Shown here: positions 1,581-23,886 of the stretch, in pieces | Numbering within the stretch: the stretch's first letter is position 1 | How the letters are laid out: each line of letters opens with the position of its first letter | NCBI GenBank assembly: GCA_031267375.1 | Contig: JAIRZE010000023.1 | Location: forward strand, 1 to 25,585 | DNA: 25,585 bases | Direction of reading: 5' to 3' | Source of the DNA: Rickettsiales bacterium | Lineage (GTDB): Bacteria > Pseudomonadota > Alphaproteobacteria > Rs-D84 | Translations under genes and position numbers: made by a program | The notes under the pieces: generated by a model | Told to the model about the DNA's origin: nothing | The model's input: only the letters and a program-made list of their open reading frames with translations | Database searches by the model: none

Positions 1581-1654
1581 TGGTGCGGGCGGCGGGAATC
1601 GAACCCGCGTCTCGAGCTTGGAAGGCTTGCATTCTACCATTGGACTACGCCCGC
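1581..1654 (-). tRNA. tRNA-Gly (anticodon UCC)
   Basis: Hand-folded cloverleaf. Acceptor stem GCGGGCG/CGCCCGC, T-arm GCGGG-UUCGAUU-CCCGC, anticodon loop CUUCCAA, encoded CCA, discriminator A. There are two C/A mismatches (12:23 and 28:42). Confidence 0.8.
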
Positions 1655-1739: not shown

Positions 1740-1825
1740 TGGTGGGAGCGGTTGGAGTCGAACCAACTCAAGCAAAGCTAACAGATTTACAGTCTGCCCC
1801 GGCTCTCCGACTCCGGCGCGCGCCC
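1740..1825 (-). tRNA. tRNA-Tyr (anticodon GUA), long variable arm
   Basis: Anticodon arm GCAGA-CUGUAAA-UCUGU, T-arm GUUGG-UUCGACU-CCAAC, a 13-14-nt variable arm and encoded CCA. The acceptor stem has a C4/U69 mismatch, and position 8 reads C. Confidence 0.8.
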
Positions 1826-1879: not shown

Positions 1880-1926
1880 ATTGAAAAAGGTAATAAGGTG
1901 ATAAAGTATTGCACCTTATCACCTTA
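1880..1926 (-). terminator. Hairpin with tandem-8-mer arms, terminator-like, after the stop of the 95-aa gene
   Basis: AAGGTGATAA (1895-1904) pairs with TTATCACCTT (1916-1925). The arms are (AAGGTNAT)x2 and (CCTTATCA)x2. The minus-strand RNA continues AUUACCUUUUUC. Confidence 0.55.
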
Positions 1927-2214
1927 TCACGAGTTATCACACAGGGATTGGCCAGGCTGCGGAGTATGAGTGCGCCAATAATCCATAACCGCATCCCATT
2001 CGCTGCGCGTTATGCATCCGTCTTTGTTTTTATCCAGACATCTCACATCATCGGCATATCCGCGTTTTACATCCGCTTTCAAGCATCCGTCTTTTTCAAA
2101 AAGATATGATTCAGGCATATGCTCTGCCCCGCCCTGCTTTTCCAAATTTGGCGCATTTGTCCCGCAGCTGGCCGCCAAGCCGCAAATCGCGGCCAATATC
2201 ATTAATTTTTTCAT
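1927..2214 (-). CDS. Small secreted protein or lipoprotein with a canonical EF-hand Ca-binding loop
   Basis: 95 aa. Signal peptide MKKLMILAAICGLAASC. The 12-residue loop DKNKDGCITRSE fits D-x-N-x-D-G-x-I-x-x-x-E. The RBS is AAGGGGGG. Confidence 0.7.
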   Translation of the reverse strand: MKKLMILAAICGLAASCGTNAPNLEKQGGAEHMPESYLFEKDGCLKADVKRGYADDVRCLDKNKDGCITRSEWDAVMDYWRTHTPQPGQSLCDNS

Positions 2215-10637: not shown

Positions 10638-11027
10638 ATGAAATTAAAATTGCTAATTGCTAATTGCTCGTTGCTAATTCTTGTGGCTTGTTCGTCCCCG
10701 AACGGCGGCAGCATTGACAACGCCACGGTCCTGAACTGGGAGAACGAGGCGGTAACGACCGAGCAATTCGTAAAAGATCACAAAGTCTGCCTGGGGGTGG
10801 ATCGCCCCGCCCATATGCCGCGGTCGCGCCTAGCAAAGCTGATCGCCCCGAATCAAAGCGGGCAAATGCCGGACTGGGACGGATTATGGGTTACTTTTCA
10901 GTCAAACGAGTATTCTGATGTCGGTCAAAGGTCTTTGATGTCCGTTCCGCCGAATTCCACATCCAAATCAGTTGGCGCATACAGAAAATGTATGTTCAGA
11001 AAGGGCTATCTGCTGCGGGCAATGTAA
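10638..11027 (+). CDS. Lipoprotein, function unknown
   Basis: Start reassigned to MKLKLLIANCSLLILVAC (lipobox LVAC). 129 aa. The signal-peptide coding region contains tandem heptamers (AATTGCT)x3 plus one degenerate copy. Confidence 0.65.
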   Translation: MKLKLLIANCSLLILVACSSPNGGSIDNATVLNWENEAVTTEQFVKDHKVCLGVDRPAHMPRSRLAKLIAPNQSGQMPDWDGLWVTFQSNEYSDVGQRSLMSVPPNSTSKSVGAYRKCMFRKGYLLRAM

Positions 11028-11891: not shown

Positions 11892-11925
11892 CACTATTCA
11901 CTATTCACTATTTTTATGCTATAAT
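11892..11925 (+). promoter_or_regulatory. (CACTATT)x3 tandem heptamers plus extended -10 TGcTATAAT upstream of ftsQ
   Basis: Heptamers at 11892-11912. TG at 11917-11918 and TATAAT at 11920-11925. The ATG at 11933 lies 7 nt after the -10 box. The -35-like TTCACT is formed by the repeat. Confidence 0.55.
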
Positions 11926-11932
11926 CCGTGTT

Positions 11933-12622
11933 ATGAAGAAATCCTTTTGGTTTTGGCTGTGCTTTGGGCTGGGCGTCGTTTTTGCGACCTATTTTTCAGC
12001 GCGTATTGCTATGACGCTTATGGGGCGCGGAAATCCCGCAATTATAAAAAACATTTCCATTCGCGCGGCAAATGGAAGCGCGGATATGGACGCCATAACC
12101 GCCGCCGCGGCCATTTCACCCGGAACAAAGACTTATTCGGTAAGTCTGGACGAACTGCGCGCGCGGATAAACAGCGTTCCGGATATAGAGTCTGCCAGCG
12201 TCCGGCGCCTGGGCAACGGAAATTTAGCTATTCAGGTAAAAGTCCGCAATGCTGTGGCGGTTTGGACCGACGGACAGGCTTTTTATCCCCTGACCCGCGA
12301 CGGACTGATTATAAAACGGCCGACGGATACGCGACCGGAACGACTGGTGCTTTTCAAAGGCCCGCTGCCGGACGATATATCGGCAATTGTGCGGGCATTG
12401 CGCGGCGCACCCGGCGTGGCGGCGGCCGGCGATTATTTGGAATGGCAAGAGATGCGGCGCTGGAATCTGCATACAAAGTCCGGGGCAATTATTTATCTGC
12501 CCGAAGAAAAACCTGAAAATGCGATCTCGGCCTTGGCGGTGCTGGCGCAAAAACACCAATTGCTTTCCCGCGAAATAGCAATAATAGATATGCGCGACAA
12601 CGCAAGGGTGCTGGTAAAATAG
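11933..12622 (+). CDS. ftsQ: Cell division protein FtsQ
   Basis: 229 aa. N-terminal TM helix, then a POTRA-like block (ISIRAANGSADMDAITAAAAISPGTKTYSVSLDELRARINSVPDIESASVRRLGNGNLAIQV). An FtsA-like gene lies downstream. Confidence 0.8.
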   Translation: MKKSFWFWLCFGLGVVFATYFSARIAMTLMGRGNPAIIKNISIRAANGSADMDAITAAAAISPGTKTYSVSLDELRARINSVPDIESASVRRLGNGNLAIQVKVRNAVAVWTDGQAFYPLTRDGLIIKRPTDTRPERLVLFKGPLPDDISAIVRALRGAPGVAAAGDYLEWQEMRRWNLHTKSGAIIYLPEEKPENAISALAVLAQKHQLLSREIAIIDMRDNARVLVK

Positions 12623-12688
12623 AGTAGAGAGTAAAGAGTAGAGAGTTAAGCTTAATATCTCTACTCTCTAATCTCTACTCTCTACTCT
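12621..12688. repeat. Imperfect long palindrome built of AGAGTAN heptamers, centred on AAGCTT
   Basis: Left arm AGAGTAGAGAGTAAAGAGTAGAGAGTT, right arm AATATCTCTACTCTCTAATCTCTACTCTCTACTCT. It fills the whole ftsQ-ftsA spacer and ends 4 nt before the ATG at 12693. Confidence 0.8.
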
Positions 12689-12692
12689 GAAA

Positions 12693-14456
12693 ATGAATCT
12701 GCTTGACTCATCTTTTCTGTGCTTGGATTTGGGCAGCTCTGCGGTGCGCGGGCTGGCGTGCCGCGTGCAGAACGGGCTGATAACAAAATCCGCGGCATTT
12801 TCCGCGCAAAGCTATGATACTGTTTTCGCAATAAAGTCTGTTATTGATGAACTGGAAAAGCAAATCGGAAGAAGTCTGGATCGGGCATTTATAACCGGAA
12901 ATTTCGGAAACTATGACTTTAATATCATAACGCGGACAAGCAATTGGCCCAAAGAGCACAAGATAACCCAGGGCGATATTCTGGAACAAACAACGCGGGA
13001 ACCCGCGACGGACGGCTTTGCGCCCCTGCATATAATTCCGCTGCGGTTTGATACAGCCGGCGCCAGAAATCTTGCGAATCCGGCGGGGCAAATTTCCACG
13101 GAACTGACATCCGTATTCGGCGCGATAAGCTGTGATTCCGCGCAAATGCAGAACGCGGCGGCGATTCTGCGTGCCGCGCATTTGCAGAGCGAGGGGTTTT
13201 ACGACGGCGCCTATTTGCTGAGCCAGATGACGGAAACGCCGGCGGCATTTCTGGATCTGGGCGCGGAATTTTCAAGCCTCTCCGTATGGACGAAACGCGG
13301 GCCCGTGTTTTTCAAAAAGATAAATATCGGTCAGGATGCGATAACAAATGCCATAGCGGACGAATTTGACATAAGCCGCGCGGAAGCGCTGCGGATAAAG
13401 CACAGCGCGGTCCGCACCACTATTTCGGAAATGGACAGGTTTACACCCGCGGACGCGAATTATGATTTTTCCAGGGCCGATTTGAATTCCGTCGCGCTGG
13501 AAATATTGAATGAAATAGGGAATATGGCAAAGGAAGAATTGGCGCCGTTTTTAGAAAAATACGAAATAGACAAATTGTACCTGTCCGGCGGCGGATCAGA
13601 GCTGGCGGGGTCCGCAGACTTTTTCAAAACAAAGTTGAATGCTAATATTGAAATCCTGGGCGCTGGCGCCGCGGTCTTTGCATTGAAAGAATTCGTCTGG
13701 AATGCGGAATCTTATCGCGTGAAATCCTATCTGGCGCGGCGCGCGCGTTGGAAATCCCGCATATCCGCGCTTGCGAATATATTCGCGCGCAAAAAGAAAA
13801 AACGGCGCCCGCATTTGGTGCCGATAATGCCCAGTGTCGCGTCCTTTGATATGAACGATCCCGCGACATATATTATGTTTGCGAATGCCGGGATAGGGGC
13901 GCTGCATATTGACATTATGGACGGATTTTTCGTTGACAAGATTACTGGCGGAATAGAAGAATTGAGGGCGATCCGCGCGCGGACGCGTATGCGCCTGAAT
14001 GTGCATCTGATGACGGAAAGCCCGGTGTCTTGGGCAACTGCGGCGGCAGAGGCCGGGGCGGATACTATCATAGTTTCAACCGGAACAGCCGGAGCACGGG
14101 CGGCGCTGCGGAAAATAAAGGAATTGGGAAAGCGGGCGGGAATCGCCCTGAACCCGGAATCGCCGGCGGCGATATTAAAGCCCGTATTGCGCGAAATTGA
14201 CGAAGTCCTGGTTATGTCGGTCCGTCCGGGGGCATCGGGCCAAAAGTTTATGGAAGAAGTACTGCCGAAAATATCGGCGCTTGCAAACACGCGGAAAAAA
14301 TACGGCCTGAAATATAGGATAAGTGTTGACGGCGGAATAAACGCTGAAACAGCACGGATGTGCTGGGCGGCGGGCGCGGATATGCTGGCCAGCGAAACAT
14401 ACCTGGCGCACGCGCCTGACTTTGCATTGGCGGTGGAATCGCTTCTGCCGAAATAA
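12693..14456 (+). CDS. Fusion ORF: divergent FtsA-like actin-fold protein (about aa 1-370) plus ribulose-phosphate 3-epimerase (about aa 375-587)
   Basis: N-terminal part: LCLDLGSSAVRG, FLDLGAEFSSLSVW and LYLSGGGSELAG (actin/FtsA phosphate and adenosine motifs), then a basic amphipathic tail WKSRISALANIFARKKKKRRP. C-terminal part: PSVASFD, HIDIMDGFFV, NVHLM, NPESP, VMSVRPGASGQKF, VDGGIN and AGADML (Rpe signature blocks). There is no stop between the two parts. An in-frame ATG lies at 13827. Confidence 0.75.
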   Translation: MNLLDSSFLCLDLGSSAVRGLACRVQNGLITKSAAFSAQSYDTVFAIKSVIDELEKQIGRSLDRAFITGNFGNYDFNIITRTSNWPKEHKITQGDILEQTTREPATDGFAPLHIIPLRFDTAGARNLANPAGQISTELTSVFGAISCDSAQMQNAAAILRAAHLQSEGFYDGAYLLSQMTETPAAFLDLGAEFSSLSVWTKRGPVFFKKINIGQDAITNAIADEFDISRAEALRIKHSAVRTTISEMDRFTPADANYDFSRADLNSVALEILNEIGNMAKEELAPFLEKYEIDKLYLSGGGSELAGSADFFKTKLNANIEILGAGAAVFALKEFVWNAESYRVKSYLARRARWKSRISALANIFARKKKKRRPHLVPIMPSVASFDMNDPATYIMFANAGIGALHIDIMDGFFVDKITGGIEELRAIRARTRMRLNVHLMTESPVSWATAAAEAGADTIIVSTGTAGARAALRKIKELGKRAGIALNPESPAAILKPVLREIDEVLVMSVRPGASGQKFMEEVLPKISALANTRKKYGLKYRISVDGGINAETARMCWAAGADMLASETYLAHAPDFALAVESLLPK

Positions 14457-14514
14457 TATTCTATCTCCGCTCTTCTATCTTCGCTCTGCGCTCTCTGTTA
14501 AGAATCCCTGCCTA

Positions 14515-16714: not shown

Positions 16715-16839
16715 AGTGGTCAGGGGTCAGGGGTTAGTGGTCAGCAGTATGATTGTAAAAGAACAATTTTCTTAAAAAATAAAATTGCTCTTCATTTGCG
16801 ACATACTGCTGACCACTAACCACTGCCCCCTGACCACTA
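16715..16839. repeat. 37-bp inverted repeat (35/37 match) built of GGTCAGG-like heptamers, flanking a 50-bp AT-rich spacer
   Basis: The left arm (16715-16751, AGTGGTCAGGGGTCAGGGGTTAGTGGTCAGCAGTATG) matches the reverse complement of 16802-16838. It begins 2 nt after the AsmA-like stop codon. Confidence 0.85.
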
Positions 16840-16840
16840 A

Positions 16841-19327
16841 TTAAAACTTGTCGTGGCTGGAAACAAAATCGCGCAGGTAATCCGGATCAAAGCTTATCAT
16901 TATTTCAGACAACGAATATCCGCGCCGGCCGTTCGCATCCACAGATAATGCTATCGGTTGCGGCGCCGGCGAAGTTCCGCGCAAAATCAGATTCATCTGC
17001 GCCGTCATACGACCGTTAGCAAACTGCAAATTGCCGCCCGCATCGCAATGCGGCAATGACATTTGAAACGGAACCGTTGTCGCGAATCTTCCGTTTTCAT
17101 ATTTTCCGATAACGCGCAATTTTTTCAAGCGCGTCCGCCCGCCGTCCAATGCGGCCGCCAAAGCGTATTCCGCGTTCAGCTTTGTAATGTCTTCCGCGCC
17201 CGCGTAAAATTTATCCAGCCCCAGGCCCGCGACTTCACCGCCGTCAAAAGACAAGTCCAAATCGCCGGAAAGATTGTGCCATATATCATCCGCTATCTTT
17301 CCGCTGGTGGCCAAAGAAATATCAGCTGTCAAATATCCGCCGGATATATTCAATCCATTTGCAGAATTTACCAGCAAGTCGTGCAGGACGAACTTGTTCA
17401 ATTGCACGACGGCGGAATATTCATTTTTATTCTTTTTTATATCGGCCAATAAACTGCCGTTTTTTGAATCGGTTATTGAAAAACTTTGCGAGCCATCACG
17501 CAATGAATACGCAAAATTATCAAACTCCATTCCACTGAATATAACACTGTCCGCAAGCAATGAAATGCGAATGCCGGAAAGCTCCAAAGGTGCCAGAATC
17601 GGCGCGTTTGAAAGGAATTGCTGCTCTTCGTAATCATCCAGATAATCCTGGCTGATAAAAGAATCCAGATTCAGCAGATCTGTTTTCAGCGATATGCTCG
17701 CGCCATTGGCAGAGCCTTCAAAAATATGCCCTGCGATTTCTATTTTCAAGTCCGCGATATTGCCGTTTTTATATTTTCCGGAAATTTCCACCGGCATACC
17801 GGATTTCAAAAACCTGGTGTCTATGTTTATTTCAAAGGCTTTCAGCAGGCGCAGCGCATCTTGGTGAGCGAACGAGAATTTCAGCCCGTCAAAATTCAGA
17901 CTCCAATCCGCGGTCTGGAAATAAATGCTTTTTATTTCGTTGTCCGCAAAAACCTCGCGCAGGGCGCCGCGATTCACAAGCATTTCTTTTGACACCAGCG
18001 GAAAATTCAAAATGCCAAGGCCCTCTTCCAAAGATATATTTTCGGAATTATAGTTTATGACATACCGGCCGCCTTTGATAATCATAGTTCCATTTGCAAA
18101 CGGCGTCGTAAAGGCAACTTTTCCGTCGCGCTTTCCAAAATAATCGCTGAACTGGCCGGGCGCAGGCAAAGCGTTGCCGTTAAAAATCATATCGTATGAT
18201 TTTTTATTTACGGACAGCGCGCCGGTTGCTGAAAATGATTGATAATCTTTTAATATAAATTCTTCGCATACGAATTCTTCCGGCGTTCCGGAAAACAAGC
18301 ATTCGTATTCCGGCGTAGAAAGCATAATGCGCGACGCGCCGTCCGCGCCGATCTTTCCGCCGATGGCTTTCATATCATCTGCGGCAATTTTGTTAATTAT
18401 GACTTCATCACCCTGCCCCGCCGCATTTATTTGAATACGCGAAAAGTCGCGGCCTGCGAATTTCAAGCGGCCGCTTAAATCCAAATCGTATTGCGAGTTA
18501 TTGAAGACAGACGCATCCGCCAATAAAAAGGACAAATCAAAATTTATATTCCGCGCGGATAATATTATGCGACGCGAACCGTCTTCATACAAATTAATTT
18601 CGCCGGAAAATTCGCCGCCGGCCGCATTACCTGCAATATCATAAAAACGAAATCCGTATTTTCCGTCCCATTCAAAACTCATATTAACTTTTACCGCGCC
18701 GCGAATTTTTGGGGTTTCCACCGCGAACCAGTCATTAAAGCCGTCGGTGTTTATCGCAAAAGTCCCGCGCGCGCTGCCGTCCGAAAACAAGTGTCCGGAT
18801 ATTTCCAAATTCTCGTTCGCATTGCGGATTTGAAATTCGTCGCCCTGGCTTTGAAAGTCATATCTGTGCTCGCTGGTGCGGACGGTGCCGCGCAGAATTC
18901 CGCCGGCCAATATGCCGTCCGTTATTTCATAATCCTTGCCCAGAAAGCTGATGATGGAATTTCGTATCGTTATTTCCAAATTATTTGCAGGCGGCGACAA
19001 TTCCGAAACCTGCAAGCGCGCGCCACTGACCGTTATTTTATCCGGCAATCTTAACGCGCCCAGATCAAAAACAGAAGACAACGGCACCGCGAAAACGACA
19101 GAGTCCACCGTTCCGTTCGGCAGCTTTACATCGTGGATGGCGATTGTCGCGCGACCCAGCAAACTGAAATGCACGGGGCCGTCAATCTGAATTCCCAATA
19201 CATTTTCTATCTGGGGGCGCAGGCGGTCAAGATTTATAAAAGGCGGAATAATGACGACGCAAAGCGCTAACGCGCCGGCGAGTCCCGTAAAAGACCAAAA
19301 AATCCTGCGTTTATAGCGCGGCTTCAT
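16841..19327 (-). CDS. AsmA-family outer-membrane biogenesis protein
   Basis: Start reassigned to MKPRYKRRIFWSFTGLAGALALCVVIIPPFINLDRLRPQIENVL, an AsmA-type N-terminal anchor. It is long and predicted beta-rich, with a C-terminal LSGDLDLSFDGGEVAGLGLDKFY block. Confidence 0.6.
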   Translation of the reverse strand: MKPRYKRRIFWSFTGLAGALALCVVIIPPFINLDRLRPQIENVLGIQIDGPVHFSLLGRATIAIHDVKLPNGTVDSVVFAVPLSSVFDLGALRLPDKITVSGARLQVSELSPPANNLEITIRNSIISFLGKDYEITDGILAGGILRGTVRTSEHRYDFQSQGDEFQIRNANENLEISGHLFSDGSARGTFAINTDGFNDWFAVETPKIRGAVKVNMSFEWDGKYGFRFYDIAGNAAGGEFSGEINLYEDGSRRIILSARNINFDLSFLLADASVFNNSQYDLDLSGRLKFAGRDFSRIQINAAGQGDEVIINKIAADDMKAIGGKIGADGASRIMLSTPEYECLFSGTPEEFVCEEFILKDYQSFSATGALSVNKKSYDMIFNGNALPAPGQFSDYFGKRDGKVAFTTPFANGTMIIKGGRYVINYNSENISLEEGLGILNFPLVSKEMLVNRGALREVFADNEIKSIYFQTADWSLNFDGLKFSFAHQDALRLLKAFEINIDTRFLKSGMPVEISGKYKNGNIADLKIEIAGHIFEGSANGASISLKTDLLNLDSFISQDYLDDYEEQQFLSNAPILAPLELSGIRISLLADSVIFSGMEFDNFAYSLRDGSQSFSITDSKNGSLLADIKKNKNEYSAVVQLNKFVLHDLLVNSANGLNISGGYLTADISLATSGKIADDIWHNLSGDLDLSFDGGEVAGLGLDKFYAGAEDITKLNAEYALAAALDGGRTRLKKLRVIGKYENGRFATTVPFQMSLPHCDAGGNLQFANGRMTAQMNLILRGTSPAPQPIALSVDANGRRGYSLSEIMISFDPDYLRDFVSSHDKF

Positions 19328-19341
19328 AATTTCATTCTCTC

Positions 19342-19369
19342 TTGTAATTTGATTATAATAGATTATATT
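19342..19369 (+). promoter_or_regulatory. Promoter TTGTAA-16nt-TATATT upstream of uvrB
   Basis: -35 at 19342-19347 and -10 at 19364-19369. The GTG start at 19377 lies 7 nt after the -10 box. Confidence 0.45.
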
Positions 19370-19376
19370 TGTTCTT

Positions 19377-21449
19377 GTGAATAAAAATCTTTTTAGTCTT
19401 GAAAGCAATTACAAGCCGACCGGCGACCAGCCGGCCGCCATCCGCGAATTGGAATCGGGTCTGAATGACGGGCGGCGCAGCCAAGTCCTGCTGGGGGTAA
19501 CAGGCAGTGGCAAGACCTTTACAATGGCGAATATTATCCGCGATATGGGGCGCCCCGCGCTGATTATGGCGCATAACAAAGTCCTGGCGGCCCAGCTTTA
19601 TACGGAAATGAAGTCCTTTTTCCCGAACAATCATATTGAATACTTTGTTTCCTATTATGATTATTATCAACCCGAAGCTTATATGCCGACGACGGATACC
19701 TATATAGACAAAGACGCCAGCATAAACGACCAGCTGGACAGAATGCGGCACAGCGCCACGCGCGCTATGCTGGAAGAGCGGGATGTTGTCGTCGTATCGT
19801 CGGTATCGTCAATTTACGGCCTGGGAAGTCCGGAACAATACGCCGGGATGAAGGCTGTGTTTAATCACGGCGATAAAATTGGCGCCGCGGATGTGGCGCG
19901 CGCTTTGGTGGATATTCAATACGCACGGAATGATGTTGCGTTTGAGCGCGGCGACTTCCGCGTGCGCGGCGATACTTTGGATATTTTCCCGTCGCACAGC
20001 CAGGACCGCGGCTGGAAGCTTTCATTTTTCGGGGATGAAATAGAAGATATATGGGAATTTGATACGCTTACCGGCGGGAAAACGCGCCAGTTGGACAGAA
20101 TCGCGGTTTATCCGAATACTCATTACGCAACGCCTATGCCGACGATTATGCAGGCATTGGGGCAAATCCGCAAAGACTTGGATAACCGGCTGGAATTCTT
20201 TCATAATAATATGAAATATGTGGAAGAGCAGCGGCTTCGCGAGCGCACTAATTTTGATATAGAGATGATGGAGCAAACCGGCAGCTGCCGCGGCATAGAG
20301 AACTATTCGCGGTATCTGTCGGGCCGTGCCCCGGGCCAGCCGCCGCCTACATTGTTTGAATACTTGCCGAAAGACGCGATTTTGTTTGTGGACGAATCGC
20401 ACGTAACGGTGCCGCAGATCGGGGCTATGTACAAGGGCGACCGGTCGCGCAAAACTACACTGATAGATTACGGATTTCGTCTGCCCAGCGCATTGGACAA
20501 CCGGCCGCTGACTTTTGAAGAATGGGACTCGCTTCGCCCGCAGAGCATTTTCGTATCGGCCACCCCTGCGGATTGGGAACTGACCCAGGCCGGCGGCTTG
20601 GTGGCAGAGCAGATAATCCGGCCGACGGGACTGCTGGATCCGATTTGCGATGTAAAGCCGACCGCGCATCAGGTTGACGATTTATTGGAAGAGATAAAAA
20701 AAATTACAAACAAAGGACAAAGGACAAAAGGACAGGTGCCAGATAAATGTCCATCTGTCCATTTGTCCATTTGTCCTTCTTCTGCCGTTCTTGTTACCAC
20801 CCTTACGAAAAAAATGTCAGAGCAATTGACGGACTATCTGTGCGAAAACGGGGTTCGCGCGAAATATCTACACAGCGATATTGAAACTTTGGAGCGCATA
20901 GAACTGCTGCGCGAACTGCGCCTGGGCGAATATGATGTCCTGGTAGGAATCAATTTATTGCGCGAAGGGCTGGATATTCCGGAATGCGAATTGGTCGCAA
21001 TTATGGACGCGGACAAAGAGGGATTCCTGCGCAGCGCGCGTTCTTTGATCCAGACCATTGGCCGCGCTGCGCGAAACAAAAACGGCCGGGTTATTTTATA
21101 CGCCGACAAGATAACGGATTCTATGAAGGTCGCATTGGATGAAACCGCGCGCCGGCGCCAGATACAGAGCGAATACAACGCGGCGAACGGAATAACCCCG
21201 CGCACCGTGATAAAGTCTGTTTTTGCAGAGGTCGGGGACAAGGACGACGCGTCAAAAATAAAAGACCGCGGTCTAAAATTCGTGTATAATAAAAACGGCG
21301 GCGTTATGGACAGGAAAGACTTGGAAAAAGAAATAACAAAGCTGACAAAGCAGATGCATAAATTCGCCGAGAATTTGGAATTTGAAATGGCGGGAAAGCT
21401 GCGGGATGAAATCCGAAAAATGCAGGACGACTTGCTGTTGTTGGAGTAG
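19377..21449 (+). CDS. uvrB: Excinuclease ABC subunit B (UvrB), with an in-frame insertion of about 21 aa
   Basis: [63 protein letters not shown] and QTIGRAARN, plus the C-terminal UVR motif [15 protein letters not shown] start. Confidence 0.95.
20706..20780. repeat. Palindromic tandem-heptamer element inside the uvrB coding sequence
   Basis: Left arm AAGGACAAAGGACAAAAGGACAG (20713-20735). Right arm CTGTCCATTTGTCCATTTGTCCTT (20755-20778). It encodes [27 protein letters not shown] in frame. Confidence 0.85.
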
Positions 21450-21454
21450 CGGCT

Positions 21455-21862
21455 ATGAAAATAAAATTAAATAATTTAACTGAAACACTAAAATTCGCGG
21501 CGAATTTTGCAAAAACTCTGCAAAGCCCGCAAACGGTGGCATTGCACGGGGATTTGGGTATGGGCAAGTCAGTGGTGGCGCGCGCGATAATACAAACCCT
21601 GCGCGGGGCGGATACAGTGGTCCCCAGCCCGACATTTACTTTGGTTCAGAATTACGACGGGCTTTCGCATTTTGATTTGTACCGGATTTCGGACGCGTCG
21701 GAATTGGAAGAAATCGGATTATCGCACGCAATTGCGAATGATATTACATTGATAGAGTGGCCGGAAATAGCGGCGGACCGCCTGCCCCGGGACACAATTC
21801 ATATTTACATAACGGGCAGCGGGGATACGCGGGAAATAGAAATAATTAAAAGTGCAAAATAA
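21455..21862 (+). CDS. tsaE: tRNA t6A37 biosynthesis protein TsaE
   Basis: 135 aa. LHGDLGMGKSVVARAI (P-loop), VPSPTFTLVQNY, HFDLYRI and IEWPE. Confidence 0.85.
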   Translation: MKIKLNNLTETLKFAANFAKTLQSPQTVALHGDLGMGKSVVARAIIQTLRGADTVVPSPTFTLVQNYDGLSHFDLYRISDASELEEIGLSHAIANDITLIEWPEIAADRLPRDTIHIYITGSGDTREIEIIKSAK

Positions 21863-21864
21863 AA

Positions 21865-21890
21865 CCGGCTTTGCCGGATTTTTAATTTCT
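21865..21890 (+). terminator. Intrinsic terminator after tsaE
   Basis: CCGGC-TTT-GCCGG followed by ATTTTTAATTT. Confidence 0.55.
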
Positions 21891-21931
21891 CAAAAATGTA
21901 AGTAATGTATATTTTTAGATGCTTTTACTAA

Positions 21932-21992
21932 ACGCCCCGTCAGGGGCGTCATCCCGGCGAAGGCCGGGATGACGATTTACTTCGTAAATCGT
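21932..21992. repeat. Cluster of three abutting hairpins, including a REP-like 12-bp-stem element
   Basis: ACGCCCC-GTCA-GGGGCGT (21932-21949). CGTCATCCCGGC-GAAG-GCCGGGATGACG (21947-21974). ACGATTTAC-TTC-GTAAATCGT (21972-21992). It lies between the convergent tsaE and aspS genes. Confidence 0.85.
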
Positions 21993-21999
21993 TTTGGTT

Positions 22000-23760
22000 T
22001 TATTTTTTTCTGACTTGAATATGCACTTCGCGCAGTTGCTGCTCGCTGACTTCGCGCGGGGCGCCCAACATCAAATCGCGGCCGCGCTGATCCGTCGGGA
22101 AAGCAACGACTTCGCGCAGGTTGGGTTCGCTAAGCATAATCTGCACCAGACGGTCTATTCCGAACGCGCAGCCGCCGTGCGGCGGGGCGCCGTATTGAAA
22201 CGCTGCGTACATTCCGCCGAATTTAGCCTTTACCTCTTCTTCGCCATAGCCCGCAATGGCAAACGCCGCTATCATAGTTTCCGGGTTATAGTTGCGAAGC
22301 CCGCCGCTGCAAATTTCCGCGCCGTTCAAGACCATATCAAACTGATTCGCCTTTATCGCCAGCGGATCGCCGGACAATTCTCCCTTTGGCAATGAAAACG
22401 GATTGTGCCCGAAATCAATCTTGCCTGTTTCCTCGTTCAATTCATAAAACGGAAAATCTTCCACCCAGCACAGACGAAATTCTTGCTTGTCTATCAGGCC
22501 CAGATCTTCGCCCAAACGATTGCGCAATTTTCCAGCGGCTTTTGCAGCGGTTTCCGCCTTGTCGCAAACAAAGAACAGGCTGTCGCCGTCCTGTCCGCCA
22601 ACAAGTTCTTTCAGCGCCGCGATTTGCGTTTCATTTAATTTCTTTGCAACGGGCCCCTTCGCGCCGGCCGATTCAAAGGTCAAATAAGCCAATCCGCCCA
22701 GGCCCAGCTCTTTCGTCGCATATTCGCCCAGCTTATCAAACCAGCTGCGCGGCTTGTCAATTGTCGCGGGGGCCGGAATCGCACGAACGACCGCGCCATT
22801 TTTAACCGCGTCCGCAAATACGCCGAAATCTGAATCGCGGAAAATGTGCGAGACATCGGAAATTATAATCGGATTTCGCAGGTCCGGCTTGTCGCTGCCG
22901 TATTTCAGCATAGCTTCATCAAAAGGAATATGCGGAATTTCAGATGCTATTTTTGCGTCCGGCACAAATTCGCGAATCATCGCGGGCATCAAGGAATCGC
23001 CGACGGCCTGAATATCGCGCAGGTCCACAAAAGACATTTCCAAATCCAACTGATAAAATTCCAGCAAGCGGTCAGCGCGCAAATCTTCGTCGCGGAAACA
23101 GGGCGCTATTTGAAAATAGCGGTCAAAGCCTGAAATCTGCAAAAGCTGCTTGAATTGCTGCGGCGCCTGGGGCAAAGCGTAAAACTGGCCGTGATGATGA
23201 CGCGACGGGACTATGTAATCGCGCGCGCCTTCGGGCGATGATACAGTCAGAATCGGGGTCTGGAACTCGCTGAACCCCAGGTCCCACATATGATCGCGCA
23301 GGAATTTCATAACGCGATTGCGGAATAAAATATTTTTGTGCAAGGTTTCGCGGCGCAGGTCTATATAGCGGTATTTCAGGCGCAGCTCTTCGGAAACATT
23401 GCCATCATCGCCGAAAACCTGAAACGGCAGAACATCGCTGCTGGTCAGAATTTCCCAGGATTCGCACTTTATTTCTATTCTTCCGGTCGGAATTTTGTCG
23501 TTGACGGCCGACGCATCGCGAGCAACGACGGAACCGCGAACGCTGATGACAGATTCGGGGTGAATTTTTTCAAGGCCGGCATCGCCGCCGTCCAGAACGA
23601 TCTGGGTCAGTCCGTAATTATCGCGCAGGTCAATGAATAAAAGCTGGCCGTGATCGCGCTTGCGATGAACCCAGCCGGATAGGATTACGGATTCGCCGAC
23701 ATTGGCGGCGGAAAGTTCGCCGCAGGTATGAGTGCGATATTTGGATTTTAACGAGAGCAT
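22000..23760 (-). CDS. aspS: Aspartate--tRNA ligase, bacterial type
   Basis: Start reassigned to MLSLKSKYRTHTCGELS (RBS AAGGTG). 586 aa. LLFIDLRDNYG, QSPQQFKQLL, FRDEDLRADR and the GAD insertion are present, with the C-terminal GGCAFGIDRLV. The upstream 40 codons of the ORF-track entry overlap the T-box leader. Confidence 0.9.
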   Translation of the reverse strand: MLSLKSKYRTHTCGELSAANVGESVILSGWVHRKRDHGQLLFIDLRDNYGLTQIVLDGGDAGLEKIHPESVISVRGSVVARDASAVNDKIPTGRIEIKCESWEILTSSDVLPFQVFGDDGNVSEELRLKYRYIDLRRETLHKNILFRNRVMKFLRDHMWDLGFSEFQTPILTVSSPEGARDYIVPSRHHHGQFYALPQAPQQFKQLLQISGFDRYFQIAPCFRDEDLRADRLLEFYQLDLEMSFVDLRDIQAVGDSLMPAMIREFVPDAKIASEIPHIPFDEAMLKYGSDKPDLRNPIIISDVSHIFRDSDFGVFADAVKNGAVVRAIPAPATIDKPRSWFDKLGEYATKELGLGGLAYLTFESAGAKGPVAKKLNETQIAALKELVGGQDGDSLFFVCDKAETAAKAAGKLRNRLGEDLGLIDKQEFRLCWVEDFPFYELNEETGKIDFGHNPFSLPKGELSGDPLAIKANQFDMVLNGAEICSGGLRNYNPETMIAAFAIAGYGEEEVKAKFGGMYAAFQYGAPPHGGCAFGIDRLVQIMLSEPNLREVVAFPTDQRGRDLMLGAPREVSEQQLREVHIQVRKK

Positions 23761-23886
23761 TTTGACACCTTTTTTTGTAATTTTTGATTTACGCAGGGGC
23801 GCAGAATTCCGCGCGGTGCCACCCTGATTTATAACTTTTGCCATCGGGCTTGCCTGCTCTTCGTTTGTCGGACGCATCATTGCAGG
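23761..23886 (-). promoter_or_regulatory. Compact T-box leader, specifier GAC (Asp)
   Basis: Minus strand: AGGGUGGCACCGCG matches the T-box consensus 14/14. The antiterminator-type fold is CAGGG-[UGGCACC]-GCGCGG-AAUU-CUGCGC-CCCUG (23794-23826). The Stem I-like hairpin is CCUGC-AAUGAUG-CGU-[CCGACAA]-ACG-AAGA-GCAGG (23853-23886), with K-turn-type GA pairs and GAC at 23867-23869. Confidence 0.75.

Follow-up and report, generated by a model that had tools for sequence, protein, structure and literature searches.

The window analysed here is a contig of 25,585 nucleotides (nt) from a Rickettsiales bacterium (JAIRZE010000023.1, assembly GCA_031267375.1), and our subject is a hairpin-forming element made of short tandem repeats that lies in frame inside its uvrB gene. 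The product of this gene matches solved UvrB structures over residues 5-683 (E 1e-238), a full-length match that takes in all domains, and the clusters of its orthologues carry the UvrB Pfam domains. When the whole protein is aligned with the structures, a single gap of 21 residues is left, exactly at the insert; solved structures and orthologues together put the surplus at 21-24 residues. An earlier, sequence-only reading of the window had described an in-frame palindromic insertion at 20706-20780. The sequence there is as described and the 27-residue translation given for it is correct. The insertion itself is borne out by an intact open reading frame (ORF) of 690 amino acids (aa), by the gap in the structure alignments and by a fold much more stable than that of shuffled sequence (z -6.9).

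The uvrB insert

The insert lies in a connector whose length can be measured as the number of residues between the motifs QVDDLL and L[VI]TTLTKK. In the window UvrB this number is 34. In UvrBs from other bacteria it is exactly 13, in 102 of the 102 in which both motifs were found, which rules out the idea that the connector is a generally variable linker. The closest relatives, gut bacteria that have not been cultured, bear the labels Candidatus Enterousia, Alphaproteobacteria or Rickettsiales and have UvrBs 76-78% identical to that of the window; 196 of their 216 cluster representatives have a connector of 10-11 aa. Compared with the 13 aa found elsewhere, the insert-free members of this Enterousia-like clade show a clade-wide deletion of 2-3 residues (window 20688-20789 and orthologues), and this deletion falls at the very site that later turned into a hotspot.

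Alignment with orthologues, which had been proposed as the way to define the boundaries, places the insert at about 20712-20783, to within about one codon (Table 1). Its size follows from the difference between 34 aa and the 10 aa of insert-free relatives such as L089 (KKTKGRV), and the junction was placed after ATTAC by means of the EIKKIT 5' flank that the window and the relative L121 have in common. The insert is stop-free in the frame used, adds 24 residues and is open in five of the six frames.

Two tandem arrays were delimited by Tandem Repeats Finder. The left one (20710-20734) has 3.4 copies of ACAAAGG with period 7 and can also be read with period 8, AAAGGACA; the right one (20748-20780) has 4.1 copies of an 8-nt unit, TGTCCATC. 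Both arms had been described as heptameric, which stands for the left array (period 7 or 8) and fails for the right, where the repeat recurs every 8 bases. The RNA fold of 20713-20778 is one hairpin of 66 nt (-36.6 kcal/mol, z -6.9) and none of 200 dinucleotide shuffles is as stable; the DNA fold is also stable (-20.9 kcal/mol, z -6.5). The loop has one or two weak pairs in the minimum-energy folds, and the DNA centroid drops them. Without gaps the arms are 85% complementary over 20 nt and 93% over 15 nt, so that the earlier figure of 22/24 is approached only if single-base bulges are allowed. A scan of the whole window with Rfam returned only a tRNA, so the hairpin matches no RNA family known there, and in a terminator and promoter scan of 19300-22000 it was not terminator-like and had no terminator tail.

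An AlphaFold model of the window UvrB, built from 18 sequences, is poor overall (mean predicted local distance difference test score, pLDDT, 54). Hence only its local secondary structure was used, and no fold search was made with it. A helix is confidently predicted at residues 432-449, pLDDT falls below 50 at 448-467, and a strand follows at 470-475. In agreement with the structural alignments, the insert is predicted to lengthen, as an unstructured loop, the turn before the first strand of helicase domain 3, the position that the sequence-only reading had given for it.

The same site in relatives

In 20 of the 216 relatives the connector measures 14-68 aa, which amounts to 4-58 extra residues at the same codon position, and the inserted peptides are mutually unrelated across these 20 carriers. 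DNA was fetched for the inserts of 13 carriers. Nine of the 13 fold significantly better than their shuffles and most carry tandem-heptamer arms (Table 1). Those of L085, L087 and L128 fold no better than shuffles and that of L084 is marginal; these four have the look of inserts that have decayed or are only beginning to form. The junction is constant to within one codon, after E-I-K-K-x-x and before (P)G-R-V, and the window and L121 share ATT AC. It had been proposed that equally long non-repetitive linkers in close relatives would speak against an insertion; some of the connectors in relatives are indeed equally long, but they consist of hairpin repeats of another sequence, and the nearest insert-free relatives have 10-11 aa. 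This outcome extends the idea of an insertion and does not refute it.

The largest insert, that of L171 with its connector of 68 aa, contains palindromes within palindromes built on CTCCCCCC..GGGGGGAG motifs, and L084 has at the same uvrB site a C7/G6 hairpin related to that of L171. Both cases suggest that hairpins already present can be entered by new ones.

A neighbour-joining tree of 214 UvrB proteins with the connector masked includes 18 carriers, and their distribution on it requires at least eight changes of state. Five UvrBs that are 89-93% identical to each other (P0122, P0124, P0125, P0126 and P0127) have connectors of 41, 10, 68, 15 and 62 aa, respectively, with unrelated inserts. 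L083 has an insert and L088 has none; their UvrBs are 91% identical and the loci are syntenic, a comparison of sequences that points to a recent gain or loss between the two. A single ancient insertion followed by drift is ruled out as the sole cause, since hosts that are at least 89% identical hold unrelated inserts of differing length; it is also contradicted by the presence of one repeat family (family A, below) at the same site in hosts that are only 74% identical. As drift of one ancient insertion cannot explain P0122-P0127 and the pair L083/L088, either different elements have entered the slot repeatedly, or elements are replaced or removed there at a high rate.

Could the loop be useful to the protein, for instance as a new interaction surface of UvrB, with the palindrome in the DNA being incidental? 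An insert that is kept in frame in an essential repair gene might invite this view. However, the peptides at the slot have no sequence in common from lineage to lineage, it is the nucleotides that show the symmetry, and the region is predicted to be disordered. We regard an adaptive loop as highly improbable.

Sister hairpins and dispersed families

At least three further tandem-arm hairpins lie in the window (1887-1930, 12621-12688 and 16715-16838), together with one-armed heptamer arrays at 10648-10679 and 11892-11912. The earlier statement that these intergenic hairpins have the same architecture as the uvrB insert is correct. To compare loci we used our own scan for inverted repeats, in which each arm had to be at least 14 nt long and to have a period of 7-8 nt. 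Loci with a uvrB insert, 114 kb in all, contained 18 such hairpins, and insert-free loci of the clade, 494 kb in all, contained 2; the density per base is about 40-fold higher in the former. The presence of an insert in uvrB goes with the hairpin load of the genome.

One junction between genes behaves in a similar way. The ftsQ-ftsA junction is 3 nt long in L088 (L088:11113-11115); in the window a 70-nt hairpin of other units occupies it, and in L083 there is a 65-nt gap with an (AGTCGCT)x4 / (AGCGACT)x4 palindrome (L083:7938-7993). This gap looks like a second slot behaving as that of uvrB does. Only 4 nt separate the right arm of the ftsQ-ftsA hairpin from the ATG in the window, too few for a normal ribosome-binding site.

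Intergenic tandem-arm hairpins, such as those at 12621-12688 and 16715-16838 of the window, L083:7938-7993, L081:1301-1362 and L081:2053-2117, have stops in all six frames, their units being rich in TAG, TAA and TGA. Copies inside genes are open in the frame used. This difference is what a filter of selection on random insertions would leave.

Sequence-defined families that recur at several loci were found in the relatives. Family A has arms (GAGCGCA)n / (CGCTCTG)n with conserved GCAGGTAA ... AACCACCTTCGCTCTGCGCTCT. Four copies of it lie within 9.4 kb in L172, three intergenic and one as the uvrB insert. The uvrB insert of L083 also aligns to family A; the UvrBs of L083 and L172 are only 74% identical to each other and about 79-80% identical to that of the window. 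The window itself has a solo right arm of family A (Table 1), which shares an exact match of 16 nt, CTTCGCTCTGCGCTCT, with the family A core of the L172 and L083 elements; this genome has therefore been exposed to family A. In L081 the same element is present in the same frame in uvrB and in ruvA (L081:4318-4384, in the linker between RuvA domains II and III), giving the peptides CEVLNVKCE..HSTLHTSHST and CEVWNVKCE..TLHTSHSTL, respectively, and two hairpin copies in L087 share both arms and the loop. Of 35 pairs of hairpins within a locus, 4 share an identical stretch of 14 nt or more, as against 0 of 241 pairs between loci. Palindromes of another kind, headed by GTAG, lie in frame at the same site of tsaE in L081 (13365-13459) and L087 (8365-8442), where they add 23-30 residues; the tsaE of the window (135 aa) has none. 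Similar palindromes also lie within the mnmE (L081:2241-2338) and dciA (L087:11917-11979) genes as called. A protein-database search for other genes with these elements, made with a chimera of five insert peptides to which the word index is unsuited, gave three candidates with shared words, none of which scored.

The repeat in uvrB had been called locus-specific, which holds within this 25-kb window only and does not hold as a wider statement. The analogy with Rickettsia palindromic elements (RPEs) drawn by the sequence-only reading is strengthened, the elements of the relatives being multi-copy families with intergenic and in-frame genic copies.

Another suggestion would be that the hairpin is under selection for an action in cis: it might make translation pause between two domains, serve as a site for an RNase or form a DNA cruciform, its structure being kept while the sequence drifts. 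That many lineages have a stable hairpin here, each of unrelated sequence, looks like structural conservation, and the position is a domain boundary. On the other hand, 196 of the 216 relatives lack it, some of them 91-93% identical to carriers; its presence follows the genome-wide hairpin load; and the same elements are also found between genes and in other genes. For these three reasons a selected regulatory hairpin is unlikely, and we take it to be improbable. The inserts of L085, L087 and L128, which fold no better than shuffles, and the missing terminator-like tail and Rfam match also speak against it.

An assembly artefact, that is a palindromic chimera or a misjoin in a metagenome contig, is harder still to credit. 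It is true that the window comes from one contig, with no reads behind it, and that its UvrB protein cluster is found on one contig only. Yet the frame is kept without a stop codon in the insert, the sister hairpins sit at sensible gene boundaries, and analogous in-frame inserts are present at the same codon in independent assemblies from four sources (ENA, NCBI, JGI and Logan), which makes an artefact unlikely.

Origin of the element

On balance we lean towards the view that the insert is a palindromic repeat element, comparable to those of Rickettsia, residing in a permissive uvrB slot that is used recurrently, translated as a disordered loop and reshaped by slippage. The course of events may have been as follows. 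This bacterium and some of its relatives harbour hairpin elements of one class, with both arms built as arrays of 7-8-nt units, and these fill gene junctions; in the relatives they form multi-copy families, each defined by its sequence, which would be copied between loci, both intergenic and genic. Again and again uvrB would receive such elements at a single slot, precise to the codon, in the connector that is otherwise of invariant length and joins the QVDDLL..EIKK helix to the first beta-strand of helicase domain 3 (VLVTTLTKK). Only those copies would survive there whose length is a multiple of three and which have no in-frame stop. Translation of a surviving insert would give some 24 residues at the protein surface, a disordered loop that UvrB presumably tolerates. 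After insertion the arms would change by replication slippage of the short units and probably also by hairpin-templated correction, two processes that would explain why arms are internally homogeneous and why their sequences differ between lineages. No benefit for the host need be assumed. Of all this, the insertion, the hairpin, the hotspot, the tie with the genome-wide hairpin load and the dispersed families of the relatives are observed, whereas a move of this particular copy, an enzyme that moved it, the slippage and the tolerance by the protein are inferred.

Several observations weigh against this view. For the unit AAAGGAC / TGTCCATT the 25-kb window offers no further copy beyond chance, and 1.6 Mb of fetched loci of the relatives offer none at all, so the evidence for copying between loci comes from the relatives. 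Neither a transposase nor a conserved terminal tag came to light; there is no Y1 transposase domain among the scanned ORFs of the window or the called genes of the fetched flanks, and by eye no target-site duplication or other flanking direct repeat was seen around the window insert or the copies of family A. In viral contigs neither the window unit nor the core of family A was found. The lack of reads for the contig and the poor model of the protein count on the same side, as do three features that would suit an origin on the spot: there is a likeness between the first unit, ACAAAGG, and the T-K-G codons native to the insert-free L089 (ACC AAG G), the insert of L087 looks like a local triplication of native GTCGTCG, and the arms are more uniform internally (left 7-8-nt units, right 8-nt units) than they are complementary to each other.

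These features lead to what we consider a serious rival, a purely local origin in which nothing moved between loci. A native heptamer of the connector (T-K-G codons, ACNAARG) would have been expanded by slippage, and an intrastrand template switch would then have copied the array as its reverse complement, so that the hairpin was built in place. The resemblance of ACAAAGG to the T-K-G codons and the triplication in L087 keep this origin in play. The unit of the window is one base from the ACCAAGG of L089, the one-armed (GTCGTCG)x3 array of L087 matches native V-V-G codons, one-armed heptamer arrays exist in the window (10648-10679 and 11892-11912), and the unit is unique to this locus in the 25-kb window and the 1.6 Mb of relatives. 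Heptamers are also the commonest long simple repeats in prokaryotes, with polymerase slippage proposed as their cause (Mrazek 2007, cited in PMC4679880), and template switching can create inverted repeats (PMC5453318, PMC8604942). Against this, the uvrB inserts of relatives belong to families that are present at other loci, the same family is found at the same uvrB site in hosts with UvrBs 74% identical, and a likeness of a 7-mer to flanking codons with one mismatch is weak evidence. For the window insert we rate a local origin as unlikely without thinking it negligible, and we continue to prefer an RPE-like element.

If the elements are mobile in their own right, something further can be imagined, and we offer it as a tentative and rather doubtful possibility. 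There might be an undescribed class of coding-compatible mobile tandem-heptamer hairpins that integrate, and perhaps are precisely excised, at slots defined by structure or by sequence. One such slot would be the codon-precise position in uvrB, entered independently by different families in hosts whose UvrBs are 74-93% identical. If true, there would have to be a machinery dedicated to integration, such as an enzyme of the HUH/Y1 type acting on single strands or something new altogether, and it would amount to a natural large-scale experiment on how well linkers in proteins tolerate insertions.

Other features of the window

In addition to the hairpins described above, the window has an (AATTGCT)x4.6 array at 10648-10679, inside a putative lipoprotein signal peptide (MKLKLLIANCSLLILVAC|SS) of the ORF 10638-11027. 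If one unit were added or dropped the reading frame would change, an arrangement typical of phase-variable genes. A single ORF of 587-592 aa codes for both FtsA and ribulose-phosphate 3-epimerase in the window and three relatives (Table 1), apparently a gene fusion common to the clade. The REPIN-like doublet listed in Table 1 lies in a gap of 1.27 kb that also holds tRNA-Gly (1581-1654, minus strand) and tRNA-Tyr (1740-1825, minus strand). A possible in-frame insert in aspartyl-tRNA synthetase (22003-23880, minus strand; 626 aa vs 584-591) was rejected, as the surplus is a 40-codon over-called N-terminus; orthologues start MLSLKSKY.

Table 1. Coordinates of the uvrB element, of related features in the window, and of uvrB inserts in relatives
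Feature	Position	Strand or orientation	Units and remarks	Fold
uvrB coding sequence	19377..21449	+	690 aa, GTG start, host of the insert; ORF intact	
Inserted segment	20712..20783	+	72 nt, 24 codons; boundaries good to about 1 codon	
Left hairpin arm	20713..20738	+	tandem AAAGGAC / AAAAGGAC units; paired in minimum-energy fold	
Hairpin loop	20739..20751	+	mostly unpaired in RNA and DNA folds	
Right hairpin arm	20752..20778	+	inside TGTCCATY octamer array; pairs with left arm	
Sister hairpin	12621..12688		(AGAGTAG)n / (TCTCTAC)n; fills gap from ftsQ stop to ftsA start	DNA, z -5.6
Sister hairpin	16715..16838		37-nt arms of GGGGTCA / GTGGTCA heptamers, 95% complementary; just downstream of AsmA-like gene	DNA, -47.5 kcal/mol, z -13.2
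Sister hairpin, small	1887..1930		AAGGTAAT / CACCTTAT tandem arms	DNA, z -5.6
Solo right arm of family A	14459..14495		CGCTCTG units, directly after ftsA-rpe stop codon	
REPIN-like doublet	1284-1318 and 1391-1425	inverted, 72 nt apart	perfect 35-nt hairpin CTGGTACACTTTATAC-GGTG-GTATAAAGTGTACCAG	
ftsA-rpe ORFs	window 12693-14456; L083:6161-7933; L088:9340-11112; L170:14893-16671			
L121 uvrB insert			(GGAGATT)x3 / (CAATCTC)x3; 30-bp stem, single G-T wobble	-59.1 kcal/mol, z -14.6
L081 uvrB insert			(GTGAAGT) / (CACTTCA)	z -8.2
L086 uvrB insert			(TCGTCAC)	z -6.0
L082 uvrB insert			(GGATGAT)	z -4.2
L083 uvrB insert			(GCGCAGA)	z -4.1
L172 uvrB insert			(GCGCAGA)	-67.7 kcal/mol, z -8.3
L171 uvrB insert	L171:11309-11512		204-nt nest of C6/G6 palindromes	-109.6 kcal/mol, z -7.1
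L170 uvrB insert				z -3.2

Comparison with known repeat elements

We know several groups of repeats that share some of these properties. RPEs are about 150 bp long and fall into ten families, with 44 copies in R. conorii, nearly half of them genic and in frame (PMC10969869). They resemble the present case in being short palindromes that lie in frame in conserved housekeeping genes at tolerated positions, with intergenic copies and several families per genome (PMC10969869), and the relatives of the window show the same multi-copy pattern, intergenic as well as in-frame genic. The differences are equally plain. The window element, at 66-72 nt, is about half the length of an RPE (about 100-150 bp); RPEs have a conserved family peptide; here the arms are tandem arrays of 7-8-nt units; and the host belongs to an Enterousia-like lineage, not to Rickettsia. 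The element is set apart by its length, arm design and host lineage, and on these grounds we do not count it as a member of the Rickettsia family.

In Xanthomonas and Nostoc there are convergent pairs of heptamer arrays, GGGAATC and GGGGAYT, respectively, with 70-75 pairs per Xanthomonas genome, mostly intergenic (Rehm et al. 2015; PMC4692102). As in uvrB, two nearby arrays of 7-nt units lie on opposite strands and are able to form a stem-loop. Those pairs, however, have one G-rich unit that avoids coding sequence, in contrast to the many units without G-tracts found here and to the in-frame copies at a recurrent site in conserved genes. The Xanthomonas unit, of the GGGNATC type, is capable of forming a quadruplex; the units of the uvrB insert, AAAGGAC / TGTCCATY, have no run of three or more G. 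The intergenic location is shared by the sister hairpins of the window and not by the uvrB copy.

TAACTGA repeats are known in Beggiatoaceae, cyanobacteria and Bacteroidetes, and cyanobacteria have other heptanucleotide repeats (PMC4679880). They too are tandem 7-nt units concentrated at gene boundaries; their forward units have stops in all frames, and rare genic copies are at the peripheries of proteins (PMC4679880). The intergenic units AACTGAT / AACTGAA of L081 resemble the TAACTGA of Beggiatoaceae and cyanobacteria. In contrast to the elements described here, TAACTGA repeats are almost all direct, with only one inverted case reported, in the Maribeggiatoa genome, and form no hairpins within conserved domains of housekeeping proteins.

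A repetitive extragenic palindrome (REP) is an imperfect palindrome of 20-40 nt with a GTAG or CGTC tag at one end (PMC3733652). REPs, which are moved by REP-associated tyrosine transposases (RAYTs), are short multi-copy intergenic hairpins that sometimes form inverted doublets (REPINs), as in the doublet at 1284-1425 of the window, and in relatives GTAG-headed palindromes lie even inside tsaE, mnmE and dciA (PMC3733652). The uvrB element differs in having tandem repeats as arms and no such tag, GTAG and CGTC being both absent from 20706-20785 on either strand. The called genes of the fetched flanks include no RAYT gene. As for miniature inverted-repeat transposable elements, the whole uvrB element is an inverted repeat, and no flanking direct repeat is evident by eye.

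Finally, in Nematomorpha the mitochondrial coding sequences contain inverted repeats with both arms translated (PMC6649704), and template switching is a route by which inverted repeats may be created or perfected (PMC5453318, PMC8604942). Those repeats are organellar or eukaryotic and much longer, and they have neither tandem units nor dispersed families. In the literature that we covered, which is incomplete, we found no description of in-frame tandem-heptamer hairpins in housekeeping genes or of a recurrent slot in UvrB.

Implications

Discussion of palindromic 'selfish' DNA that lies in frame in housekeeping genes has centred mostly on Rickettsia. A phenomenon like that of RPEs is now seen in a separate lineage of uncultured host-associated Alphaproteobacteria, with a tandem-heptamer design of the arms, and the excess of heptamer repeats in bacteria is thereby linked to hairpin elements. 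There is also a practical warning for annotation. Where conserved proteins of these metagenome-assembled genomes have odd loops of low complexity, the loops are repeats at the level of DNA, not innovations of the protein or errors of assembly. The connector of UvrB, which is 13 residues long across bacteria, has been filled many times here by unrelated hairpins of 4 to 58 codons. It marks a position at which UvrB is able to accept large insertions, and the slot offers a tractable system for how such elements choose their sites.

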